The translations under genes were made by a program, and so were the position numbers. Under the pieces are notes generated by a model. That model was not told where the DNA came from. It did not search any database and saw nothing but the letters and a program-made list of their open reading frames with translations. DNA of 61,967 bases, counting the filler, from Basidiobolus ranarum (taxonomy: Eukaryota), in the NCBI GenBank assembly GCA_040143965.1. It is 26 parts of 26 records of this genome, joined end to end, with 100 filler letters (N's around TTAATTAATTAA, not from the genome) between each part and the next. Parts side by side here need not be neighbours in the genome. Positions count along the whole stretch, not along the records: positions 35,861 to 38,146 come from JASJQH010003526.1; 25 more parts are not named here. One strand, given 5' to 3'. Within the stretch, counting starts at the first letter, position 1, and each line of letters begins with the position of its first letter. Shown in pieces: positions 1-51,760 of this stretch.

Positions 1-1620
1 GAGGTGCCAGGTGTTGGATAAGCTTCTGAATTTAGCTCTCTTCCAGCTGGTGTACCCAGTTCCATGATGAAATTAAGCTTTTTTGCAATATATCTGACTC
101 TGGAAATGCAGATCTTTGTAATGGTGTGAAGAATTTGGTAAGTGGGACAGTAGTATTGAAGTTTATTGTCTTTATCATATTTGTTATCTCTGTCTTTATA
201 CACTTGACTATTTCATATATCACATATAAGTTTGTTTACATTACTTAGTCAAATATCACTTAACCAAAAATTGGAACATATATTTTATATATATGTGATT
301 AATGTGAGAATTAGCAATTCAATATTGGAAATTTTGAACTTGTCCAAACTGCCCCAAATATAGCTCATTTTACTCCCACAAATGTTCTGAACACAACCCC
401 AGTGTTAGGTTTTTGTATTTCCACCAAAGTGTATAAATGCTTTATTTCTGGACAATAAATAATTATCTCAAAAGGCTATTCCCAACTCCACTTTTCTAAA
501 GTTTCTCCAAACAGCCCATATTTTCCCAACAAGTTGGGCCTAAACTCACTGGCTTGTTTGCTTCTCTCTTGGGTTTACTAACTTCCTGCTCCTTGAGTAC
601 TTCTTTAGCTGCTTTTCTTTCTTTTCCAAGTTGATAATTGTGTACATTTTTGAGATGTTTCATGAATAGGCCTATACTAGCTCAATTTTCATTTGCTTTC
701 AAAAACCCAGGATAAGCCACATGAAATAAGTCAAGAACCTTCAGAGTAACACCTGGTTTTTGGTATTTGCACAATTGGCTCAAATCCAGGTGATTTTAGG
801 CAAGATTCTGCACAGTTTCCAAAATGTTAAGCCACTCAGCATCAGAGAAAGTGATGGCAGCTCTGACATTCTGAGTCTTTTGGTTTGCCGGTTTTCCTAT
901 GAGATTTCAACTTTCTTGTGCCCAAGCAATTTTGGGTTGTTGTGTATGCTTGATGTTCCAACACATATTCTGCTCTGCTAGATTGTCACCATGACATTCA
1001 TATGTATGGTGTGGGATTGATTGAAATTCCATATGAGAATTGACAGAGGGAGCCACATGTTGCTGTAGCTCAAGTACAGCATTCTGAAGGTCTTGTGTCA
1101 TTGTTGAGTCACTCTCTAAATGTTGACTAGTTGCTTCCAAACACTGCATTAGTTGCAATATTGCGCCATTATTGCTTGTCATGGCCTGTATAGCAACTTT
1201 GAAGTTTTTACTTATGATTGCATATAAATCATTATGGTGTTCTGGCTGCAATTCCCTTGTTGTAAAAATTCTATTCAAATTTTCTGCAGAGGGTTGTTCA
1301 ATAGTGGGCAAAATGGCCATTTTGGAAGTTGATGGTCTTGATGGTGCTTTGGATGAACTTTGCTCAACTATTGATTTACTAAGTAATTGGGGGAGTACAA
1401 TCTCTTCACTTGCAAAATTGCTGGAAAGGAACACATCTGGTAAATTGATTAATGCTTCATCATTACTTTGGGTAGTTTCTGGCATGTTAATGCCTTCCAA
1501 AGTGGATAGTGGATTGCTAGACTGCTCATCAATCAAGTGCTCTGTTCTTGCTGGTTTTTTTTCTTTTGTGCCAGCAGGCTTTGGCTTGGAAGCCAACTTT
1601 GATTTTGAACACTTTTGAAT
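1..1620 (-). mobile_element. Decayed accessory ORF (ORF2) of a CACTA/CMC-type DNA transposon family
   Basis: Encodes KPKPAGTKEKKPARTEHLIDEQSSNPLSTLEGINMPET...LQNAVLELQQH, recurring in at least 7 contigs with independent stops and frameshifts. Interrupted by a solo LTR at 154-531. Confidence 0.75.
154..531 (+). mobile_element. Solo LTR, Copia family B (378 bp)
   Basis: TATTGAAG...CCCAACA ends with near-perfect 5-bp TSD AGTAG/AGTTG. Absent from other copies of the host repeat. The same LTR flanks Copia gag (25261) and RNase H (53348, 57101). Confidence 0.9.
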
Positions 1621-1836
1621 AGCACTGAAATTTTCAGATGGTAAACTTGGTGTAATGAAATAGCTTAGAAACAACTTATAATAAACCAAAATTGCCACCC
1701 TTAACCAGAAATATCTTGTAAACCCCCTGATGATTGATCTGTGACACTGTTGCAAAATCAGCTGATAATATTGATGGGTTATACCTAAAATACCACCCTT
1801 ATGTAGGAGGTATTCTTTTTTCACAATATCCTTCTC

Positions 1837-2294
1837 ATGCCACAACACAAACATTTAAAGAAGCCCTGTTATTCTTGTCACAAATTCTTATGCTATGAAA
1901 GCTGGAGGCTTTGTGGAATAAATAATAACAAGCATGGTCACTGTACAAAGCCACCAGCTGCACAAGGCCTGGTGTATAAACACAGTAATAAGTGCACTAA
2001 ATTGACTTTAGTTTTGCCCATTGAATCCTCTGACTGTACTTTGCCTCAAAGTTTGGGTAACACTGCCAAAAGTCAAAATACTGTGGAGTTACCACATTTA
2101 TATGACCAAAATGATGTAGGTAGAAATGCATCTTTGGTCAAACCAGTAAGTCCAGACAACTTTGAGGACTTGCTGCTAGATGTTGACCTTGGTTATTCCA
2201 GTACCAATGGTAGTATATCAGAAGTTGAAGAAGAAGACACTGGTTTTGTTACAGACTCTTTGTTATTGGCAAACATTAGTCCACTCATAACACT
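1837..2294 (+). mobile_element. N-terminus of CACTA-family ORF1 (putative transposase), divergent from ORF2
   Basis: MPQHKHLKKPCYSCHKFLC..H Cys/His cluster followed by an acidic tract. Same ORF start seen near 28900, 46800 and 48292. The catalytic core is not in the window. Confidence 0.6.
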
Positions 2295-3690: not shown

Positions 3691-6119
3691 TAATATGGCA
3701 GCTTGAATATATGTTGCTCATTTGAGAGTGTAAGCTAAGAAGTCCCAATTATAGCCCAAATGATACTAATTGCAGACTAAGTGTGGGATAATGTGGAAAT
3801 ACATTTACAATAAGTAATAATTCAACCTATGTAAGTTATATTTGGTACAGATGCCCAGACATGCAAATCACTACTAGCTTACTAGTCTGTGGTGCTCAGA
3901 GAATATAATTTGTTGCAAAAATGAATAGGGGGAAGTGTAGAGATAGAGAGAAGCATTAGGACAATAGGAAAGTGGTTGGATCCACTCTTTCAGGATCTGA
4001 TAATTTGGGTGAAGCAATCTTTGAATGTCAGGTCTTTAAGGTATTGTATCAATAATAATATGACCCATACATTGCTATACCATGTAACTACAGATAATGA
4101 GTTGAGGGCTTTTCAATACTAGAATATATGGAACATGACTCCTCACATTGTTAAGATATTTCACTTTTTTGCAACCAAAATACCTTTCTATGCATTTATG
4201 TGTATTCCTAAGCATGGTTTACTTATAAAACAAGATTTGCTATGAAGTCACATAAACAGTTATTTTGTAAGACTTATTTAGTATATCAAGTACTACTAAA
4301 CTTTTAAAGGCACCAAATTCATATTGCATGGCTTTGATAACTGCTTGTCAAGTAGTTTAGTTTACCACTTAACACCTTACTAAGTTAGCCCTCCTCAAGT
4401 TCCAAGCTCCTACCATTACGTTCCTTCAAAAATTTCAGTGTTGTAGCAATTTCAAAATTTACTTTAGAGACATCTGCTTAGTAACAGATGGCACTCCAGC
4501 AAAAGATAGAACATAAGATCCGTAGTAGTACCGGTGATTTTTGAGAGGGAGTTATTGAATTTGCAGCTCTAACATCGTGGGTTTATGAGTTTGAGGATAT
4601 CATTTTGTTAACCGCAATGTATGGCCATGGTAAAAAATTCGGGTACCTCACTTAGAATTCAATTACTGATATTATATTGTTCATTTGANNNNNNNNNNNN
4701 NNNNNNNNNNNNNNNNNNNNNNNNNNNNNNNNTTAATTAATTAANNNNNNNNNNNNNNNNNNNNNNNNNNNNNNNNNNNNNNNNNNNNCAAAGCTGAATT
4801 TTTTATACTGGAAGCTTAAAAATATTGATAGGAGATATATTCTTCACTCTATCTTTAAGGGGTAAAGACACACTTTGGTATGTCAATAGCTTGAAGACTT
4901 TATGAGAAAAGATTATTTCTGATAATAGAACTATCAAAAATCCTCAATACTACAAGGATAGATAAAACTCAGGTGGTTTCTCTAACTTGAAGTCTGATGA
5001 AAAAGATATAGTTCTTTTGAGATTGGCAAAGACTTTGATCAAGAGTTGGATATATTCTATGGCTGAAAAGTGAAGATAACTATGAAAGAATCTGTACTGC
5101 AATCCTCTATAATCAAGCCTAGTTGTGTTGCAATAGGAATCTTTATTATGGTACTATGATGCAGGGTAGAATATCTAGTTAAGGAGACAATAAAGAATAT
5201 GGCACTGTTTTGGATGGGGCAAAGGCTAGAAGCTTTTTCAATAGGGGGAAGAGTTGCTTATATAAAGAAAAAGCTTAAAATAAATGCTATGAATTGGGTG
5301 CTGAGAATAAATGCTATGAGTGGGCGGCTTAGCATTGAAGTGCCAATAAGATTGTTTTTATAGCAGCTGCCGCTTTGAAACTCTGAACACATCAGCATCA
5401 AGTACTGTTGCAGCTCTGTACAATATACAAAGAGAATCTGCTAGCTGGTTCAGAAGTTAGCACTAATTTCATGAGCATCTTGAGGTCCTGTATTCCTGTA
5501 TTCTGAATATAGGCTAGTTTGATTTTTGAGTTGGCAATTTTGAAATAGCTGTAGCTCCACCAATATTTGCTCAAATCTTATGATTCATGCATGGTTGCAA
5601 AGCTCTAATTCTGGAGTTTTTGATTGCAGCTTAAAGTACTGTATTAAACTAAGTATTGATGTGACTATGAGCAATTGAATATTCTTGTTCTTTTTCTTGA
5701 TCTGTAAAATTTTATAAGATAGCAGTAGAAAATTTTCTTCCTACTTATCACATGAAATATAAGATTGGAATATTTCCAACACTACAAGTCTCCCCTGAGC
5801 TGATATATAATGCCCTCATTATATTCTTGGAAGTTCTGATCTTTTGTTGTGCCATCTTATCTCTTCTTGGATTCTTTGCTCATATATCATCCAATAAAGG
5901 TTGACATATTGTTGATATGAACTCTTCTAGAACTCTGCAGATTGCTCTTTGATATGTTTGCACCAAGTTAGTCCAACTTTGTGGAATTCTTGTCATTCTA
6001 ATTAAGCTAATTGGAGTGTGTCTTGCAGTATAGTCTTCCATTTTATGATGTGTCAAAAGTTGATCATATTGTTATTTAGCTGCTGGACATCTTGAATAAA
6101 TCTAATTTTTCCATTCTGC

Positions 6120-17801: not shown

Positions 17802-19041
17802 TGTTGAAATTAGCAATGCCTGAACATCTAAATAGTCATATATAACTTAGTACTTAGTTATCTTATAACCCACTAAGATATTATCAATTATTCTCAATTG
17901 GAATTTACTTAGAATATTTTTACCAACTTAAAGGTTCTCAGATATATAGACTTTCAAACTTGTGCTAGAAGCCCCAAACTTTGCACACATGTTCCTGGGA
18001 CCTTCCTTAATATATTCTACATGATAGTTTGTTTACATCTTGACAAAACTATAAATTTCAACTTTCTATGCAATAAATCAATAAGTGAAGACCACCAATT
18101 CCTCTAATTTGCCAAACCACTTCCAACAGGCTCCCAAATACTTTAACAGGTTATGAGCCCCAAGCTTGCACTCTCTGAAATGTCTACTTCTAAAGTTTAT
18201 GGAATTTTTCCTTTCTCTGAAAAATTGGATGGAACCAATTATCAAGTTTGGAGAATTAAAATGAAAATGCTGCTGCAAGAAAAAGGACTTTAGGATACTG
18301 TTGTAGGAGAAGAAAACAATGCAAAACTAGCAGACAACAAAGTTTTACTCCAGGTTACAAAAGAACAAAGTGCCTTTAACACAGTTTGTCTTAATGTTAA
18401 AAACAAATCGCTAATTCAATGTTCAAGAGCTGAAACTGCCAAGAAGGTATGGAAAGCCTTGGAAGACACCTACCAAACAAGCTCTGCTGCCAACAAGATG
18501 TTTTTCAGAAGACAATTCTTTAACTTAAAGATGGAGCCAGGAGAAGACATTAAATCACTAATTGATAGAGTCACTATTTTAGTGGATCAAATGGAATGCA
18601 TTAGAGAACCTACCACTGTTCAAGATATCATAGTTACAGTCCTGGATAGCCTGCTACATGAGTTTCAGAGCCTAGTAATGGCTCTAGAATCAAGAACTAA
18701 AAATTTGACCTTAAGTTATGTATTAGGCAGACTTCTGGATGAAGATTTACACAGATCAAGACTTAACCAAAAGAATGAGGAAAAAACTCTAATAGGCTAT
18801 GGGAAACCTTCTTATAAAGGTCAAAAGCACTTTGAGAAGAAAAGTAACCCATTCTGTGATTACTATAAAAGAACTGGCCATTTAAGCAAAGATTGCTTTA
18901 GAAGAATTGCAAAAGAAGAAAAACATACTGAATCAGGAAATGTGGTTACAACAGAAGATCACTTGTTCATTTCTGCTCTATCTATGACCACCAACAAGGA
19001 TTCTCAGACATGGTATATTGATTCTGGAGCTTCCTAACATT
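17802..19041 (+). mobile_element. Copia family A: 5' LTR (17802-18148), PBS, gag and protease start
   Basis: PBS GGTTATGAGCCCC; gag KLDGTNYQVWRIKM, FFRRQFFNLKMEPGE; zinc knuckle CDYYKRTGHLSKDC; protease WYIDSGAS. Confidence 0.93.
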
Positions 19042-33474: not shown

Positions 33475-33649
33475 AAGGATTCACAACTTGTGAATATTCA
33501 ATATGCAAAGACTTCCCATCAAGCTTGGACTATATTAGAAGAATGTTATGAAGCAAAGAGTCTTGCTAATAGACTCTTTCTCAGACAAAAATTCTTCATT
33601 GTAAGGATGGAAAAGTCTGAAAGCATGATTACTCATATTGCAAATGTGA
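33475..33649 (+). mobile_element. Copia-B gag fragment fused in frame to hexosaminidase
   Basis: DSQLVNIQYAKTSHQAWTILEECYEAKSLANRLFLRQKFF...THIANV matches the gag at about 25641-25817. Confidence 0.9.
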
Positions 33650-34149
33650 TTGTTCAGCAATGGACCGGGAGTCAAAATACGAAATCCATTGTTAATCTTG
33701 GGCATGACATCATCCAAAGCGGGTCTGATTACTGGTATTTGGATGTAGGACATGGTCGTCATGCTCCAGGATGGGTTAATTGCCCTACTTGCGATAAATA
33801 TCGTACTTGGCAAAAAATATACTCTCATGACTTACGTGCGAATCTTACGGAAGCTGAGGGTGCTCATGTGTTAGGAGGCGAGCCTGCCCTGTGGACAGAA
33901 CAAATCGACTCTTACAATCTTGATGTACAGATGTGGCCTCGTGCAGCAGCAGCAGCAGAGGTTTTGTGGAGTGGTTATAGTGCTATTAATTATACAGACA
34001 TCTTTGGCTCTGTCAAACGTGCTTTCCCTAGACTTAACGAATGGCGCTATCGTATGGGTGGACGAGGAATCAAGGGTGCTGCTATAGCACCTCTCTGGTG
34101 CGTTAAACAAATGGGATGGTGTGATCTTCCAGCTGGTTTTGAAGCATAG
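33643..34149 (+). CDS. C-terminal part of GH20 beta-N-acetylhexosaminidase
   Basis: YWYLDVGHG, YRTWQKIYSHD, VLGGEPALWTEQID, MWPRAAAAAEVLWSG and RLNEWRYRM...PLWC motifs. The catalytic DE is absent from this fragment. Confidence 0.92.
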   Translation, partial: NVIVQQWTGSQNTKSIVNLGHDIIQSGSDYWYLDVGHGRHAPGWVNCPTCDKYRTWQKIYSHDLRANLTEAEGAHVLGGEPALWTEQIDSYNLDVQMWPRAAAAAEVLWSGYSAINYTDIFGSVKRAFPRLNEWRYRMGGRGIKGAAIAPLWCVKQMGWCDLPAGFEA

Positions 34150-34366: not shown

Positions 34367-35758
34367 TTAAATGCTAGGTATAGAACAACCCTGAGGTTCA
34401 CTATTTGTAACCACGGACGATTCATCATTAGATCGCTTGAAGGTGTGTTCATTACTACCACGAGCTTTGGAAACACTCGATGCATCGTGAGAGTATGTAG
34501 CTAAAGCATGGGCAATGCCACGCGCATTGATCAAAAATGGATAATGTGCGAGGTTTGCAGCAGTATCGCATGCCTTGTGGTAGCATTGGTCCAGGGCTTC
34601 ACCTGCTTTTCCACCGAATTTCTTGGCCTGCTCTTCGGTTTTGATCTCTTCGGCTCCGGTATCCAGCCCGCCAGAAGGAATTCCTACTGCCGCAAAAGGC
34701 CCTACATCTGAACGGCTGTAAGGGAAAACACTACTCTGATAAACAATATCCTTGGCCTTGAAATGATCCTCAAAGAGTTTGGTAATGACTTCGGAGCCAG
34801 CTGGTACTGGCTTACCACTAGAATCGCCGTTGTATGTCCGGATGATATAGTTGGGTGAAGCAACCATATCAAAATTTAGAATGACTGCTATGTTATCTAT
34901 TTCACTCTTTTCTAAGCTCTGTACATAGTGTTTCGAGCCTAACAAACCGAACTCCTCCCCAGCCCACCAACCGAATCGGACCTTATTCTTAGGTCTAATA
35001 TGACGGAATTGGTATGCAATTTCGAGAAGTGCACTACTGCCAGAACCATTGTCGTTGATCCCTGGACCAGCTCTAACCGAGTCCGTATGAGATCCAAGTA
35101 ATATAACATTCTTTGGGTCCCCACCTTTCGTTTCGGCAATGATGTTGTAAGTTTTACGGTTTTCGCGTAGCTCGTTGATATTTATCGAGGCCTTCACCTC
35201 CCCACTCTTCAGTAAGTCAATAAATATTCTGCCTGATTCTTGGCTCACACCTCCTGTAGGAATGGTCGACGTACCTTCAACTCCCAAAGTTCCACTAAGA
35301 TTTCCTGGAGTATTATTGTAAATTATAGTGGCTACTGCCCCAAGTTTACTCGCTTTCACTGATTTATCGTTAAATGCACAACCACCACGCTCGATTAAAG
35401 CAATCTTTCCTTTGAGGTCAAGTCCTGAGAAGTCACCATCCTCACAGCCTGCTGTTCCCTTCTCCCCAGCCACATCTGGAACTAGGACGAGTGGTGCAGT
35501 GAGACCACTATCAGGGGTTGACGCAGTCAGCGTCATCGCCCGAATCACGTAATCCTTACCATTAACGCTTAATTTTTGTGCTAATGTTTCAGAGTAAGGG
35601 GCAGTGAACTCTTGAAGAGTGACCTTGTACCCGGCATTTTTGACAATTCCATAGATGTAATCGAGTGTAAGTTGATGGCCTTTCCCACCAAATACTCTAG
35701 TATCATTGTTTTGACTGGCAAACTTTTGGAGGTTATCAGTATGTCGGAGAAGTCCTTT
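34367..35758 (-). CDS. PA-domain M28 aminopeptidase (aminopeptidase Y/SGAP-like), 5' cut by contig edge
   Basis: Open, intronless frame reaching the contig edge. PA domain (KIALIERGGCAF) and all metal-ligand motifs present: GSHTDSV, GINDNGSGS, GEEFGLLGS, NFDM, CYHKACD. Confidence 0.95.
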   Translation of the reverse strand, partial: KGLLRHTDNLQKFASQNNDTRVFGGKGHQLTLDYIYGIVKNAGYKVTLQEFTAPYSETLAQKLSVNGKDYVIRAMTLTASTPDSGLTAPLVLVPDVAGEKGTAGCEDGDFSGLDLKGKIALIERGGCAFNDKSVKASKLGAVATIIYNNTPGNLSGTLGVEGTSTIPTGGVSQESGRIFIDLLKSGEVKASININELRENRKTYNIIAETKGGDPKNVILLGSHTDSVRAGPGINDNGSGSSALLEIAYQFRHIRPKNKVRFGWWAGEEFGLLGSKHYVQSLEKSEIDNIAVILNFDMVASPNYIIRTYNGDSSGKPVPAGSEVITKLFEDHFKAKDIVYQSSVFPYSRSDVGPFAAVGIPSGGLDTGAEEIKTEEQAKKFGGKAGEALDQCYHKACDTAANLAHYPFLINARGIAHALATYSHDASSVSKARGSNEHTFKRSNDESSVVTNSEPQGCSIPSI

Positions 35759-35860
35759 AANNNNNNNNNNNNNNNNNNNNNNNNNNNNNNNNNNNNNNNN
35801 NNNNTTAATTAATTAANNNNNNNNNNNNNNNNNNNNNNNNNNNNNNNNNNNNNNNNNNNN

Positions 35861-36234
35861 TACTGTAATACTTGTGGCGAAGAGTCTTGTACATTTGTGG
35901 AGCTCAAGGGTACTGTATCGTTGTTTCGTGATGGTTTCGCGATGACTTCCCATTGTAAATCTACTAGATCATAACCAATGTTTGAAATGGATTTTTCGAT
36001 GGTCTTACCCAACTGAACACGGTCATCGATTGCAAAATCGGCTACTCCACGGCCGGTAAGGGAGCTGACACTAATAGAATCTGTGACGATGGAGTCGATG
36101 GCAGCCAAGGCCTTCTCAGTGGTTTTAACACAAGACGAGCAGGTCATGCCTTCTATTTGCATGATAGCTCTATACAGAAAGTTCTGTTCAGGCTGTGAAA
36201 CCAACACACCCTGCAAGTCGGTATTTGCTGACAT
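35861..36234 (-). CDS. N-terminal HMA domain of a probable P1B copper-transporting ATPase
   Basis: IEGMTCSSCVKT...ISNIGYD HMA motif; TATAAA about 125 bp upstream. Runs off the contig. Confidence 0.75.
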
Positions 36235-36496
36235 TGTTGTATGTATGTGATGTATGTGATGCAAGTAATGTTAAGGAATAATTAGATTAAGTTGGTGTAG
36301 AGTCGATCTACTATAATATTGAAATGAGTTACCAAATATCGTGGCGACACTGGGTGCTTTATATCATTTGATGCCGTTTCAAAAAACCTAATTTGGATTG
36401 GTCTATTCAATTCTAGAACAGATCGGTTGGGTATTTCTTCTTCACATTCTACAACTTCTATGGCTTCTGTCCAATCAAGGCGGCTTCCACAGGAGA

Positions 36497-36695
36497 GAGA
36501 TTTCAGCCATTGGTCAGTAAGATCGGGATGATCCGTAATCCTTATTTGGGAATTTGAAAGAACACCGGTAAAATAATGATGTGCGATATTTCAGCCATTG
36601 GTCAATATGATTGGGATGATACGTAATCCTTATTTGGGAATTGGAAAGAATACTGTTGGTAAAATCATGATATGCGATATTTCAGCCATTGGTCA
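36497..36695 (-). promoter_or_regulatory. Tandem ~90-bp repeat (2.2 copies) upstream of the HMA gene
   Basis: Three copies of GA(T/G)ATTTCAGCCATTGGTCA at 36497, 36585 and 36676; minus strand reads TGACCAATGGCTGAAAT (CCAAT plus GCTG core). Confidence 0.6.
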
Positions 36696-37105
36696 TGAGC
36701 TATATGTGCTAGTAGAAGAAAACAAGAGAAAAATCACTAATTAGTAACCAAGTTTAAGATTTGGCTGCTTTGGTACAATTAAAAATCAGGCCTAAGTAGT
36801 TGAAGGTTGACATATTCCGTCTCTGAATTATTGATATGAGATGGAGGGTTAGGGTTATGAATTTTAGCTGATTTCGACAACAGCGGATAAATCAGGATCT
36901 AATAAAATTAGAAAATGAGCAGGTTTTTGTGCCACTAGTCAGTGCAAGTTCATCAACAATGTTGGATTATTTCGGTACACTAACCGAATTCAGAAGTTGT
37001 TGCTACTCCCCAGAATCGGCTACAATATTCTGCTTAATTTAGGTTTTACAGTGTTTTAATCTAAAATGAGAGTAATTAAAGAAATCAATTAGATATTTCA
37101 TAAAT

Positions 37106-37191
37106 CAATGGGACGATCGCAATGAATTCGAGATAAGCTCAGACATCTGGCAAAAGAAAAAGGGTTCAAAGACTTACTCTGTATTAAATGT
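37106..37191 (-). ncRNA. Candidate Fanzor omegaRNA scaffold / element right end
   Basis: Lies immediately 3' of the Fanzor stop. GAGUAAGU (37179-37172) can pair with GCUUAUCUC (37138-37130). Sequence turns AT-rich after GTCCCATTG. Boundary is inferred. Confidence 0.35.
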
Positions 37192-37893
37192 TTAGTGTTG
37201 CAATAACAACACAGGATTATTTGCTTTTTTCGTTAGTCGACTGCTGCTAGCTGACGAGATACCCTTTCTTTTATACCCGGTGGTGGAGAGAGGTTCCTTC
37301 AATCTGCAAAAACGTTCTGGTCTTTCTCCAGTTGAGCGCAAGTTAAAAAGGATATGTCTAAAGTTCAAAGTAGCAGCTGGGTTACGATTCCAAAGACAAA
37401 GGGGAGAATCTTCAGTAGTATTGGCCACGACCTTTAAACACTGTTGGTTTTTGCACCTAAACAGTAATTAGGTTGGAATTTTTTACTTGCATACAAAAAG
37501 CGCTTACCTTGAAAGGCCGTGACAATATACAATAGGATACTTTTCTCTTTTGTATGGTCTAGGATTTTGGACTTTCTGAAACTCTTCCAGTTCACCGTTC
37601 TGGCAAGTAGAGCACAAACTTGAAGTTTTAAACTCGTCAAGGAGGTATAGCTGGAAGCCTTCTTTGGCTAACACTTTTCTCATTCCAACGCCTCTATTGG
37701 GCCCATGATACTTTTCATTTCCCGCCAACCAGTCACCAAGTATTAATATAGTATCATTCCCAAACTTCTCTCAAAGATTCTTGGCAAGCCGCTTGTCTGA
37801 TTGTAGTTGGTTAATGAAACTTGAGAGCTTTATTTTTCTAAAAGGTAACAAACCGCTGATATGCTGGTCTTCTCCTGCAGGGTGATCCTCACT
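37192..37893 (-). pseudogene. Fz1: Fanzor1 (TnpB-derived RNA-guided endonuclease), C-terminal RuvC-II/zinc finger/RuvC-III half, with a spliceosomal intron
   Basis: Spliced translation: PFRKIKLSSFINQLQSDKRLAKNL*EKFGNDTILILGDW...RGVGMRKVLAKEGFQLYLLDEFKTSSLCSTC...NPRPY...CHGLSR|CKNQQC...LWNRNPAATLNFRHILFNLRSTGERPERF. Intron 37457-37507 (GTAAGC...CTAAT...TAG); premature TGA at 37771-37773. Confidence 0.88.
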
Positions 37894-38768
37894 TTAGTAA
37901 TTAGGGGGGAGATGAAAAACACCAGGTGGTGTGGACTTTCTTTAGTTAAATACTAATCTAAACAAAGTGACAATCAAGACATCAATCTTTTAAGATATTG
38001 TGACAATACTGGATCATATCCATACTTAACTTGATGACCAATATAATCCAGTTATGAGGATGTAAATGCAGTGTTAAGAGGTAAAGGTGGTAAGCATAAA
38101 GGAAGATACTCAGTACAAACCAAATGGACAATAAGACAAAAACCTGNNNNNNNNNNNNNNNNNNNNNNNNNNNNNNNNNNNNNNNNNNNNTTAATTAATT
38201 AANNNNNNNNNNNNNNNNNNNNNNNNNNNNNNNNNNNNNNNNNNNNTGAGGTACCAATTTCTCTTTGGCATTCTTACTTGACTCCTTACAAAATATCCGA
38301 AGCAAGGGGCTGCTAATTTGCACTGTTAATGAGGACAGACGCTCGAGGAGTAAGATGCTTTGGCCAGCGGTAAAGTCAATAGTGCTGGGATTTAGATTTT
38401 ACCGAGAGGGAAAGTGGATCATGTATTACTGTGAATCATCATATACCTTCATTTTCCTACGATTACCACCAACGAGTAGCATGCAGCGCTACAAAATGAA
38501 ATGGATGATTGGCAAGGAGTTGATTTGTCATGGCATCTATGAGGTAGAGAAATCTTGTTTCGTAAGCCTTAGACGAGTTTGAAGTAATAAAAAAACCGAT
38601 GAACACGGATCGTTCTGACTAACCCTTTTAAGGATTAATGAATTTTCAAGCATAATCCACGTATCCATCGTTAATCTTAGCATGAATCCAACTGAAACTA
38701 GAGCAATAACGAGACTTGTGGAAGATCCATATATTCCAAGTTGAAATCGTCATCATACTTCAGGTGAA

Positions 38769-50408: not shown

Positions 50409-51760
50409 ACAGCTGATGTTGTGATGGTGTCGCAGATGAGTCATCAGGGGATTTTCATGATATTTTGGCAATAAATGGCAATTCTGGTGTTTTATAAGTG
50501 GTTTCTAAGCAATTTCATTTTACCAAGTTACCATCAGAGAATTCCAATGCCATTCAAAAGGTGTTCAAAATGTAAGTCAAAATTGGCTTCCAAGCCAAAG
50601 CCTGCTGGCATGAAAGGAAAAAAACCAGCAAGAACAGAGGACGTAACTGATGAGCACTCTAGCAATCCATTATCCACTTTGGAATGCATTAACAGACCAG
50701 AAACTAACTCAAGTAATGATGAAGCAGTAATCAATTTACTAGATGCATTCCTTTTCAGCAATAGTGCTACTGAAGAGATTGTAATCCCCCAATTACAAAG
50801 TCAATCAACAGTTGCACAGAGTTCAACCAAAACAATGTCAAGACCATCAACTTCCAAAATGGGTAAATTGCCCACTATTGATCAACTCTCTGCAGAAATT
50901 TTGGATAGAATTATTGCAACAAGAGAAATGCAGTCAGAACACCATAATGATTTGTTTTCAATCATAAGTAAAAACTATGAACTTGCTATTAAGGCTGTTT
51001 CAAGTTATAATGTCACAATATTGCAATTGATGCAGCATTTAGAAGGAATTAGTCAACAGCTAGAGAGTCACTCAACAATGATACAAAACCTTCAGAATGC
51101 TGTATGTGAGCTACAGCAACATGCTGCTCCCTCCATCCATTCTCATATGTGATTTCAATCAAACCCACATCACACATATTAATATCACCATGCCAATCTA
51201 GCTGAGCAGAATATGTATTGGACCATTAACCTACACAATGACCTGAAATTACTTGGGCACATGAAACTAGAAATCTCATAGGAAAACTGGCAAACCAAAT
51301 GACTCCAAATGTCACAGCTGCCATCACTTGCTCTGATGATCAGTGGTTTAACATTTTGGAAACTGTGTAGAATTTTACCTAAAATCACCTGGATTTGAGC
51401 CAATGTGGAAAAACCAAAAACAAGGCATTACTCGGAAGGTTCTTGACTTATTTCATGTTGCTTATCCTGGGTTTTTGCAAGCAAATGGCAATTGTGCTTG
51501 TATAGGCCTATTCATGAAATATCTCAAAACTATGCACAATTATCAACTTGGAAAAGAAATAAAAGCAGCTAAAGAAGTACTCAAGGAGCAGGAAGTTAGT
51601 AAACACAGGGGAAAAGCAAACAAGCCAGTGAGTTTAGGATCTACCATCCCACTTACCAAATTCTTCACACCATTATGAAGATCTGCATTTCCAGAGTCAG
51701 ATATACTGGCAAAAAAACTTAATTTCACCCTGGAACCGGGTGCACCAGTTGGAAGAGTGC
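50409..51760 (+). mobile_element. CACTA ORF2 copy
   Basis: ORFs 50475-51152 and 51403-51678 are colinear with the other copies. Confidence 0.82.

Follow-up and report, generated by a model that had tools for sequence, protein, structure and literature searches.

A probable 5′-truncated copy of a Mucorales-clade Fanzor1 transposon in Basidiobolus ranarum

The window analyzed here, a 61,967-nt stretch of DNA from Basidiobolus ranarum (assembly GCA_040143965.1), is made up of 26 contigs of about 2.29 kb each, arranged in descending size and joined by 25 linkers of the form N44-TTAATTAATTAA-N44; any feature that seems to span a linker is therefore an artefact. The locus of interest lies on the sixteenth contig (35861-38146, 2286 nt; JASJQH010003526.1), and its genomic context is limited to that contig. 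There the minus strand from 37899 to 37192 carries the last ~218 codons of a Fanzor1 gene, read with one intron removed and with two in-frame stops read through.

The locus was compared mainly with three sequences. These are P0002, a related 577-aa protein from Rhizopus arrhizus, used as the residue reference; L001, a Rhizopus-type metagenome contig of 4815 nt; and L002, a second metagenome contig of 1211 nt. The locus itself was represented by P0001, the 234-residue minus-strand read-through peptide, in which the intron is translated and X stands at the stops. Because the intron is 51 nt long, the whole locus can be read in one frame. The features are as follows.

37900 to 38146, no strand: unrelated DNA upstream of the break, to the contig end; matches neither Fanzor proteins nor L001

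37508 to 37899, minus strand: exon 1 remnant, equivalent to P0002 residues 360-490; end of RuvC, with the Gly of ILILGDW, the Glu of LLDEF, and the first TNB CxxC

37894 to 37896, minus strand: in-frame TAA stop, opposite the TTA (Leu361) codon of L001

37771 to 37773, minus strand: in-frame TGA stop, opposite Arg402 of P0002; AGA in L001

37457 to 37507, minus strand: intron of 51 nt, spliceosomal-type, phase 2; same position as the 59-nt intron of L001 and L002

37195 to 37456, minus strand: exon 2, with the second finger half CKNQQC, the RuvC-III N-R-N, and the C-terminal tail

37381 to 37383, minus strand: AAC (Asn) codon at the third RuvC catalytic position, where L001 has GAT

37192 to 37194, minus strand: stop codon of the gene, at the end of exon 2

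37050 to 37191, minus strand: non-coding 3′ tail up to the right end of the element; shows homology with the region of the right inverted repeat in L001

This reading is not a product of chance, since a BLASTP alignment of the locus peptide with P0002 reaches an E value of 2e-102 and its only long gap, of 17 residues, falls exactly over the residues derived from the intron. Identical positions number 152 of 234, and the alignment runs from residue 362 of P0002 to its last residue, 577, with Arg opposite the TGA and NRD opposite the N-R-N. In tblastn the homology starts at 37899, two codons before 37893, and crosses the TAA at 37896-37894. An initial annotation, made from the sequence alone, had proposed a continuous reading of ~216 codons; the spliced reading counted from 37893 does come to 216 codons, but the start lies two codons earlier and the second stop had been missed. 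The same annotation gave the open reading frames (ORFs) at the locus as two, of 74-78 aa, whereas the stop-to-stop ORFs are 88, 91, and 40 aa long. Its TGA at 37771 is in frame, at 37773-37771, and opposite an Arg of the homologue. Its suggestion that this codon derives from CGA is not borne out by L001, the sole relative at hand as DNA, which has AGA at that position. Each stop is one base change away from the sense codon of L001 (TTA and AGA, respectively). Among the 25 aligned full-length relatives, the TGA column holds R in 16, K in 4, and some other residue in 5.

Judged from its sequence, the locus is Fanzor1 by descent and belongs to the Mucorales clade, the clade of the Parasitella parasitica Fanzor1, PpFz1. 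A sequence-match search of a library of solved structures gave E 1.3e-42 for the locus peptide against PpFz1 (PDB 9cf0) and E 6.7e-14 against the Spizellomyces punctatus Fanzor1, SpuFz1 (PDB 8gkh), so that the identification as a Fanzor1 C-terminal remnant, for which a match to SpuFz1 had been predicted, stands. For P0002 the value against 8gkh is 3e-50, and PpFz1 is placed in the same Mucorales clade because the Rhizopus relatives match 9cf0 at E 1.6e-140 (P0002). The locus peptide is 65% identical to R. arrhizus and R. delemar proteins over 97% of the query (E 1.5e-82), the same level of identity holding for the Rhizopus proteins P0002-P0008. An exhaustive search found 1454 library representatives matching it at E ≤ 0.001, 48 of them at E ≤ 1e-30; named relatives come from Rhizopus, Helicostylum, Gilbertella, Mucor, Phycomyces, Coemansia, and Basidiobolus.

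PpFz1 has been shown to cut DNA, and its structure has been solved (PDB 9cf0-9cf3; Xu et al. 2024, PMC11423790). The match to it extends over residues 15-197 of the locus peptide, and the two share the layout LLPFRK...LGNW...LxDEFxTSSxCxxC...HGLLRCKN..C...WNRD..A..LNF. PpFz1 is, however, full length, active, and bound to a guide RNA (PMC11423790), whereas the locus holds the last third of such a protein, with two stops and Asn for the third Asp. PpFz1 also has an FRI insertion of ~100 residues (chain residue 986 to 1092) that is present neither in P0002 nor at the locus. SpuFz1 (8gkh; PMC10432273) is far more distant; its match covers residues 22-129, that is, the end of RuvC, the alternative Glu, and the first half of TNB, and ends at the intron position, short of RuvC-III. 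Compared with the Rhizopus elements, the locus is a truncated copy in another host. It is 81% identical in nucleotides to L001 and 72% in protein over 212 aligned codons, with an intron in the same codon and a homologous right end.

The catalytic core was examined over a motif set of 36 columns, from P0002 residue 360 on, conserved in at least 88% of the 25 relatives. The locus keeps 31 of the 36, including G414, E448, C455, C458, C491, N517, and R518. Two of the five mismatched columns are artefacts (Tyr360 lies just outside the locus peptide, and position 489 falls on the intron read-through). The substitutions that stand are E425G, P456S, L489S (taken from the spliced reading), and D519N. 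The Gly of ILILGDW occupies column G414 and the Glu of LLDEF column E448, both invariant in 25 of 25 relatives; this alternative Glu sits 34 residues after the RuvC-II Gly, just before the zinc finger. The TNB finger, CSTC...CKNQQC, is read across the splice, and the invariant Pro of its CPxC has become Ser. The RuvC-II Gly, the relocated Glu ahead of a CxxC...CxxxxC finger, and an N-R-N standing for NRD had all been recognized in the initial annotation and are all present. Such a rearranged RuvC-II, with the canonical Glu replaced by an inert Gly or Pro and an alternative Glu just before TNB, has been published for Fanzors (Jiang et al. 2023, PMC10530073; PMC11423790).

At the third RuvC-III position, 22 of the 25 relatives have Asp and three have Asn, the three NRN proteins being full-length (593-784 residues). 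GtFz1 naturally carries Asn there and cuts DNA, and the D606N form of SpuFz1 cuts better than the wild type (Xu et al. 2024, PMC11423790). Because of these three relatives and the two active proteins, Asn at RuvC-III is no mark of death, and it should not be scored as inactivating in Fanzor1. The D-to-N change that had been noted at 37383 is thus in the sequence, as AAC, but the loss of activity read from it is not to be upheld.

The intron (37507-37457, minus strand) starts with GTAAGC, has CTAAT ten bases before its end, and ends in TAG. It splits an Arg codon after the second base (AG/G), and its removal gives HGLSR/CKNQQC, compared with HGLLRCKNQQC in homologues. A scan of metagenome contigs with P0002 recovered two loci, L001 and L002, among 149 pattern matches. 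L001 encodes P0002 at 99.6-100% identity. In both contigs the match to P0002 is split into two pieces in different frames ~50 nt apart (residues 1-490 and 488-577 in L001, 357-490 and 488-577 in L002), and a 59-nt intron, GTAAGT...CAG, interrupts the Arg codon that is split at the locus, again following its second base. Aligned with that of L001, the intron of the locus is identical at 41 of 51 bases, the first 30 being almost the same. The 51-nt intron first proposed from the raw sequence, GTAAGC...CTAAT...TAG at 37457-37507, is therefore in place, with homologues aligning across its junction.

Gene models of the relatives bear on the same point. Of 197 related proteins that match the locus peptide, 138 span both exons and 31 end no more than 4 residues from the exon-1 boundary, 14 of these exactly at ...LLR and 16 in a variant of ...LR; 27 others stop elsewhere on the exon-1 side and one consists of exon 2 only. 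Ends at the exon-1 boundary are expected of intron-blind gene calls, because GTAA contains TAA. On the strength of these alignments we regard the intron as real in position and old within the clade. Introns in the family are not new in themselves: multi-exon Fanzor1 genes have been known since 2013, with five and ten exons in Chlamydomonas (PMC3627910), and intron capture is the headline result of Jiang et al. 2023 (PMC10530073).

L001 provides a view of the element to which such a gene belongs. Its inverted repeats, 135 nt long (1721-1855 and 4446-4580) and 89% complementary, enclose the Fanzor gene only. Upstream of the P0002 start, L001 encodes ~116 more codons (2220-2570), divided between two frames that adjoin at a run of T. 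These extra codons are matched by PpFz1, with E 4.8e-09 for chain residues 512-578 and a second match from residue 573 on. The full family protein would accordingly be put, roughly, at 690 residues, with P0002 an N-terminally short model starting at an internal Met; the L001 copy may be frameshifted, or the run of T may hold a homopolymer error. Four Fanzor1 families are listed for R. oryzae (Bao and Jurka 2013, PMC3627910); one of the four, ROr-4, is described as lacking a transposase and as having inverted repeats of the Mutator-like type and target duplications of 9 bp (PMC3627910). The 135-nt repeats and single gene of L001 fit this description.

Two further observations concern the surroundings of L001. 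The 9 bases flanking its repeats (1715-1723 and 4578-4586), where a target duplication would lie, agree at only 6 of 9 positions, and a TA duplication is also a possible reading. Just outside the left repeat, L001 1-903 contains a frame with a weak, sub-cut-off match to Phage_integrase (tyrosine-recombinase; E 6.4e-04), which may represent a Crypton- or DIRS-like neighbour.

The right end of the locus aligns with that of L001 at 97 identical bases out of 141, plus 61 gap positions, and shows two deletions of 23 and 34 aligned columns. The locus, L001, and L002 diverge right after a shared terminal motif, ...GATTAAAACACT, which ends at 37050 in the window: past the motif, identity is 46% and 44%, compared with 69% and, for L001 against L002, 99.5% before it. 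Positions 37047-37093 match both arms of the L001 repeat. L001 has both terminal repeats and the locus the right one only; no left inverted repeat was found in the window, and no inverted partner in the contig (35861-38146). The guide RNA of published Fanzors maps to the right end of the transposon (Saito et al. 2023, PMC10432273), and that of PpFz1 is 75 nt long (PMC11423790). By analogy, positions 37050-37125 would once have encoded a guide-RNA (omega RNA) scaffold. A 6-bp pairing seen by eye at the right ends (TCTAA...TTAGA, with one G-U to A-U change) was given no weight.

At its other side the locus breaks off abruptly. Fanzor homology starts at residue 360 of the 577 in P0002, and the true protein start, going by L001, lies ~116 codons upstream of the P0002 start. 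The column of the RuvC-I Asp, D272, has no counterpart at the locus, and WED and REC are missing as well. Searching the whole window by tblastn with five full-length relatives yielded no further Fanzor piece (next best E 0.17). It had been claimed initially that the N-terminal half was replaced by other DNA; the 247 nt from 37900 to 38146 are indeed unrelated, matching no Fanzor protein and nothing in L001, but the claim can be judged over those 247 nt only. An intron at the truncation point was considered and ruled out, as the reading is continuous across this point in L001 and in the Phycomyces protein P0029. A stretch of 10 bases (minus strand CCTAATTACT) is found both at the junction, 37896-37905, and near the 3′ end of the intron, 37463-37472; the two probably agree by chance in AT-rich DNA, and they could also be microhomology used in a rearrangement.

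Signs of decay are the two in-frame stops, the two right-end deletions, and the changes at near-invariant E425, P456, and L489. Because WED, REC, the RuvC-I Asp, and the left repeat have been lost and two stops interrupt the frame, the copy can neither cut DNA nor move, and the earlier verdict that it is dead can be retained. We are confident that 37899-37050 (minus strand) is a dead, 5′-truncated copy of an inverted-repeat DNA transposon whose sole gene was a Fanzor1 of the Mucorales clade. The intact element would have been of the L001 kind, ~2.9 kb long with 135-nt terminal inverted repeats and a gene of ~690 codons, interrupted by one short intron inside the zinc-finger region, and its guide RNA would, by analogy with published Fanzors, have been made from the right end. 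Intact relatives would work as PpFz1 does, that is, as an RNA-guided RuvC nuclease, dependent on a target-adjacent motif (TAM), carried on a non-autonomous transposon. Of this the locus retains only the last ~218 codons, which cover the TNB finger and the end of RuvC, together with the intron and a right end shortened by deletions. The break itself would be due to deletion or rearrangement rather than to mis-assembly.

Several results weigh against this interpretation and have to be set beside it. Pfam alone barely detects the family: the only match to the fragment is PF07282 (Cas12f1-like TNB), sub-threshold at E 0.015 and 15.9 bits against a cut-off of 26.3. Of seven full-length relatives scanned, six gave no Pfam match and the seventh a sub-threshold one, and the PF26935 tag that relatives carry was not reproduced in the scan. 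This weak zinc-finger match is also what links the locus to bacterial TnpB and Cas12f, from which it differs in its relocated RuvC-II Glu (relocation: PMC10530073), its intron, and its eukaryotic host. As for the guide RNA, the right ends fold no better than shuffled sequences (z 0.09 for L001, 0.67 for L002, and 0.11 for the locus). Rfam finds no match in L001 or L002, and in the contig 35861-38146 only a chance-level ctRNA_p42d, which scores 19 bits (E 0.94) where the cut-off is 50. The junction near 37900 could, moreover, be an assembly chimera, the contig being only 2286 nt long and the assembly very fragmented.

The state of the coding sequence tells in the same direction. Divergence from L001 amounts to dN (nonsynonymous) 0.149 and dS (synonymous) 0.52, a ratio of 0.29 (Nei-Gojobori, 210 codons). 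Given this ratio and the survival of 31 of the 36 conserved columns, the divergence built up mostly under selection and the copy lost its activity fairly recently; by the same two values it is less decayed than the word remnant implies. They also put the sequence near function, as would be expected if the gene were intact in the organism, its truncation an assembly chimera at a repeat and its stops sequencing errors in a low-quality 2.3-kb contig. The 26 leftover contigs of ~2.29 kb, which are typical of collapsed or poorly assembled repeats, are in keeping with this alternative. We nevertheless consider an intact gene improbable, because the defects are several and independent (two stops, the 23- and 34-column deletions, three near-invariant residues changed) and the nearest relative, the protein P0027 from another Basidiobolus assembly, is degenerate too.

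A remaining function of the fragment was weighed in connection with its neighbour on the contig. An ORF with an HMA domain (Pfam E 1.1e-09) occupies 35861-36270 on the minus strand and runs off the contig end. It resembles the N-terminal part of a copper-transporting ATPase and is separated by 0.8 kb from the Fanzor right end, downstream of it. In between, at 36479-36695, a unit of 88-91 nt is repeated three times in tandem, with 84-95% similarity among the copies. The relic lies upstream of that start (~36270) on the same strand and its sequence is only moderately decayed, and its C-terminal RuvC/TNB peptide or right-end RNA could thus be imagined to serve the host, for instance by regulating the copper-ATPase gene. 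Against such co-option, none of the start codons opens a frame of any note, since stop-to-stop stretches of 40 and 88 aa are followed by the intron, and the RNA shows no stable fold. We hold it to be the least likely of the explanations considered, and a very remote one, and keep to that of a dead transposon copy.

The closest protein to the locus, P0027, is a 181-residue model on a 16-kb contig of an independent B. ranarum assembly. Of 159 aligned residues, 129 are identical to the locus (129 of 199 when 40 gap positions are counted). The second finger Cys is lost from P0027 and its NRD region is deleted. In both P0027 and the locus the frame stays open where the Rhizopus gene stops, and the two have in common the tail that follows, a 5-residue extension at the end of exon 2. 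Of 49 rows, 38 went into a maximum-likelihood tree based on 216 columns, with Coemansia as outgroup; the eleven dropped (seven Gilbertella, three R. delemar, one Helicostylum) had less than 60% coverage. In it the locus and P0027 group together (97/96) and are sister to the R. arrhizus and R. delemar copies (92/84); Phycomyces (97/86) and R. microsporus (87/90) fall outside, and all of these lie within the other Mucorales rows.

A further alternative is that the contig is contaminating Mucorales DNA and not resident in the genome at all. All of the closest full-length relatives are from Mucorales, the nucleotide identity to the Rhizopus-type copy is as high as given above, and the flanking HMA gene is taxonomically uninformative in a protein atlas (best score 0.83). 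Contamination is unlikely, however, because two independent Basidiobolus assemblies carry the same sub-lineage: the grouping with P0027, which shares the read-through of the stop codon, speaks for residence, and an identity of only 65% in protein to any Rhizopus copy shows that the DNA is not from a sequenced Rhizopus. It ranks slightly below an undamaged gene in our estimate, and we treat the copy as resident. An M28 peptidase on the neighbouring contig is 80-81% identical to proteins of B. ranarum and B. meristosporus, compared with 49-51% for Mucorales proteins; this points to Basidiobolus as the source of the assembly, on the evidence of a contig other than that of the Fanzor copy.

If the copy is resident, its similarity to Rhizopus elements calls for an explanation. 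Vertical descent between these phyla is expected to leave far less similarity, owing to saturation, although this expectation is inferred and was not measured. Between the two hosts, synonymous sites (dS ~0.5), the intron (80%), and the non-coding right end (69%) can all still be aligned. Horizontal transfer is favoured because these alignable regions, together with the 81% nucleotide and 72% protein identity, exceed the vertical expectation; the position of the locus in the tree and the Basidiobolus affinity of the M28 peptidase count in its favour as well. We lean slightly towards the view that a Fanzor1 transposon of the Rhizopus type passed horizontally between Mucorales and Basidiobolus, which belong to different phyla, recently enough to align; on this view the Basidiobolus sub-lineage would carry Asn at RuvC-III. 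Set against this, the approximately unbiased (AU) test narrowly failed to reject a grouping of Basidiobolus with Coemansia rows (p 0.058, for a group chosen once the tree was known), transposon families have old paralogues, and no intact copy from Basidiobolus turned up among the sequences compared. Horizontal transfer has been proposed for Fanzors in general (PMC10432273) and hinted at for Parasitella and Rhizopus (PMC11423790).

What is new here is a Fanzor1 member in Basidiobolus and a plausible transfer between phyla; the family, its introns, and its rearranged active site have already been published. The literature searched made no mention of Basidiobolus together with Fanzor. Should the transfer be true, an intact copy from Basidiobolus, if there is one, would represent a natural PpFz1 relative of the Asn type, and Asn has been linked to higher activity in vitro (PMC11423790). 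The import for nuclease discovery is little: the initial annotation had looked to intact copies as a possible new family of programmable nucleases, but the Mucorales Fanzor1 clade was already catalogued (PMC3627910) and its member PpFz1 has been both assayed and solved (PMC11423790). The locus does show that a split, stop-interrupted Fanzor can be recovered from a reading of raw DNA without tools.

Other contigs of the window hold features that are separate from the Fanzor copy. The M28 peptidase, which has a PA domain, is encoded at 34367-35760 on the minus strand (match 34370-35758); its best matches, several paralogues among them, are B. ranarum and B. meristosporus proteins at 73-81%. Streptomyces matches (46-50%) score about as high as the Mucorales ones (49-51%), and a bacterial origin of this expanded Basidiobolus peptidase family might be considered. 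Copia-type gag fragments occur at 18294-19037 and 33475-34149, both on the plus strand, and the second runs in frame into a fragment of glycosyl hydrolase family 20, which points either to a gene with an insertion in it or to a chimeric contig. ORFs on two contigs, 907-1854 (minus strand) and 50475-51152 (plus strand), are 67% identical over 225 residues; the former, the one of the pair that was scanned, has no Pfam match. This pair is a repeated gene or mobile element.

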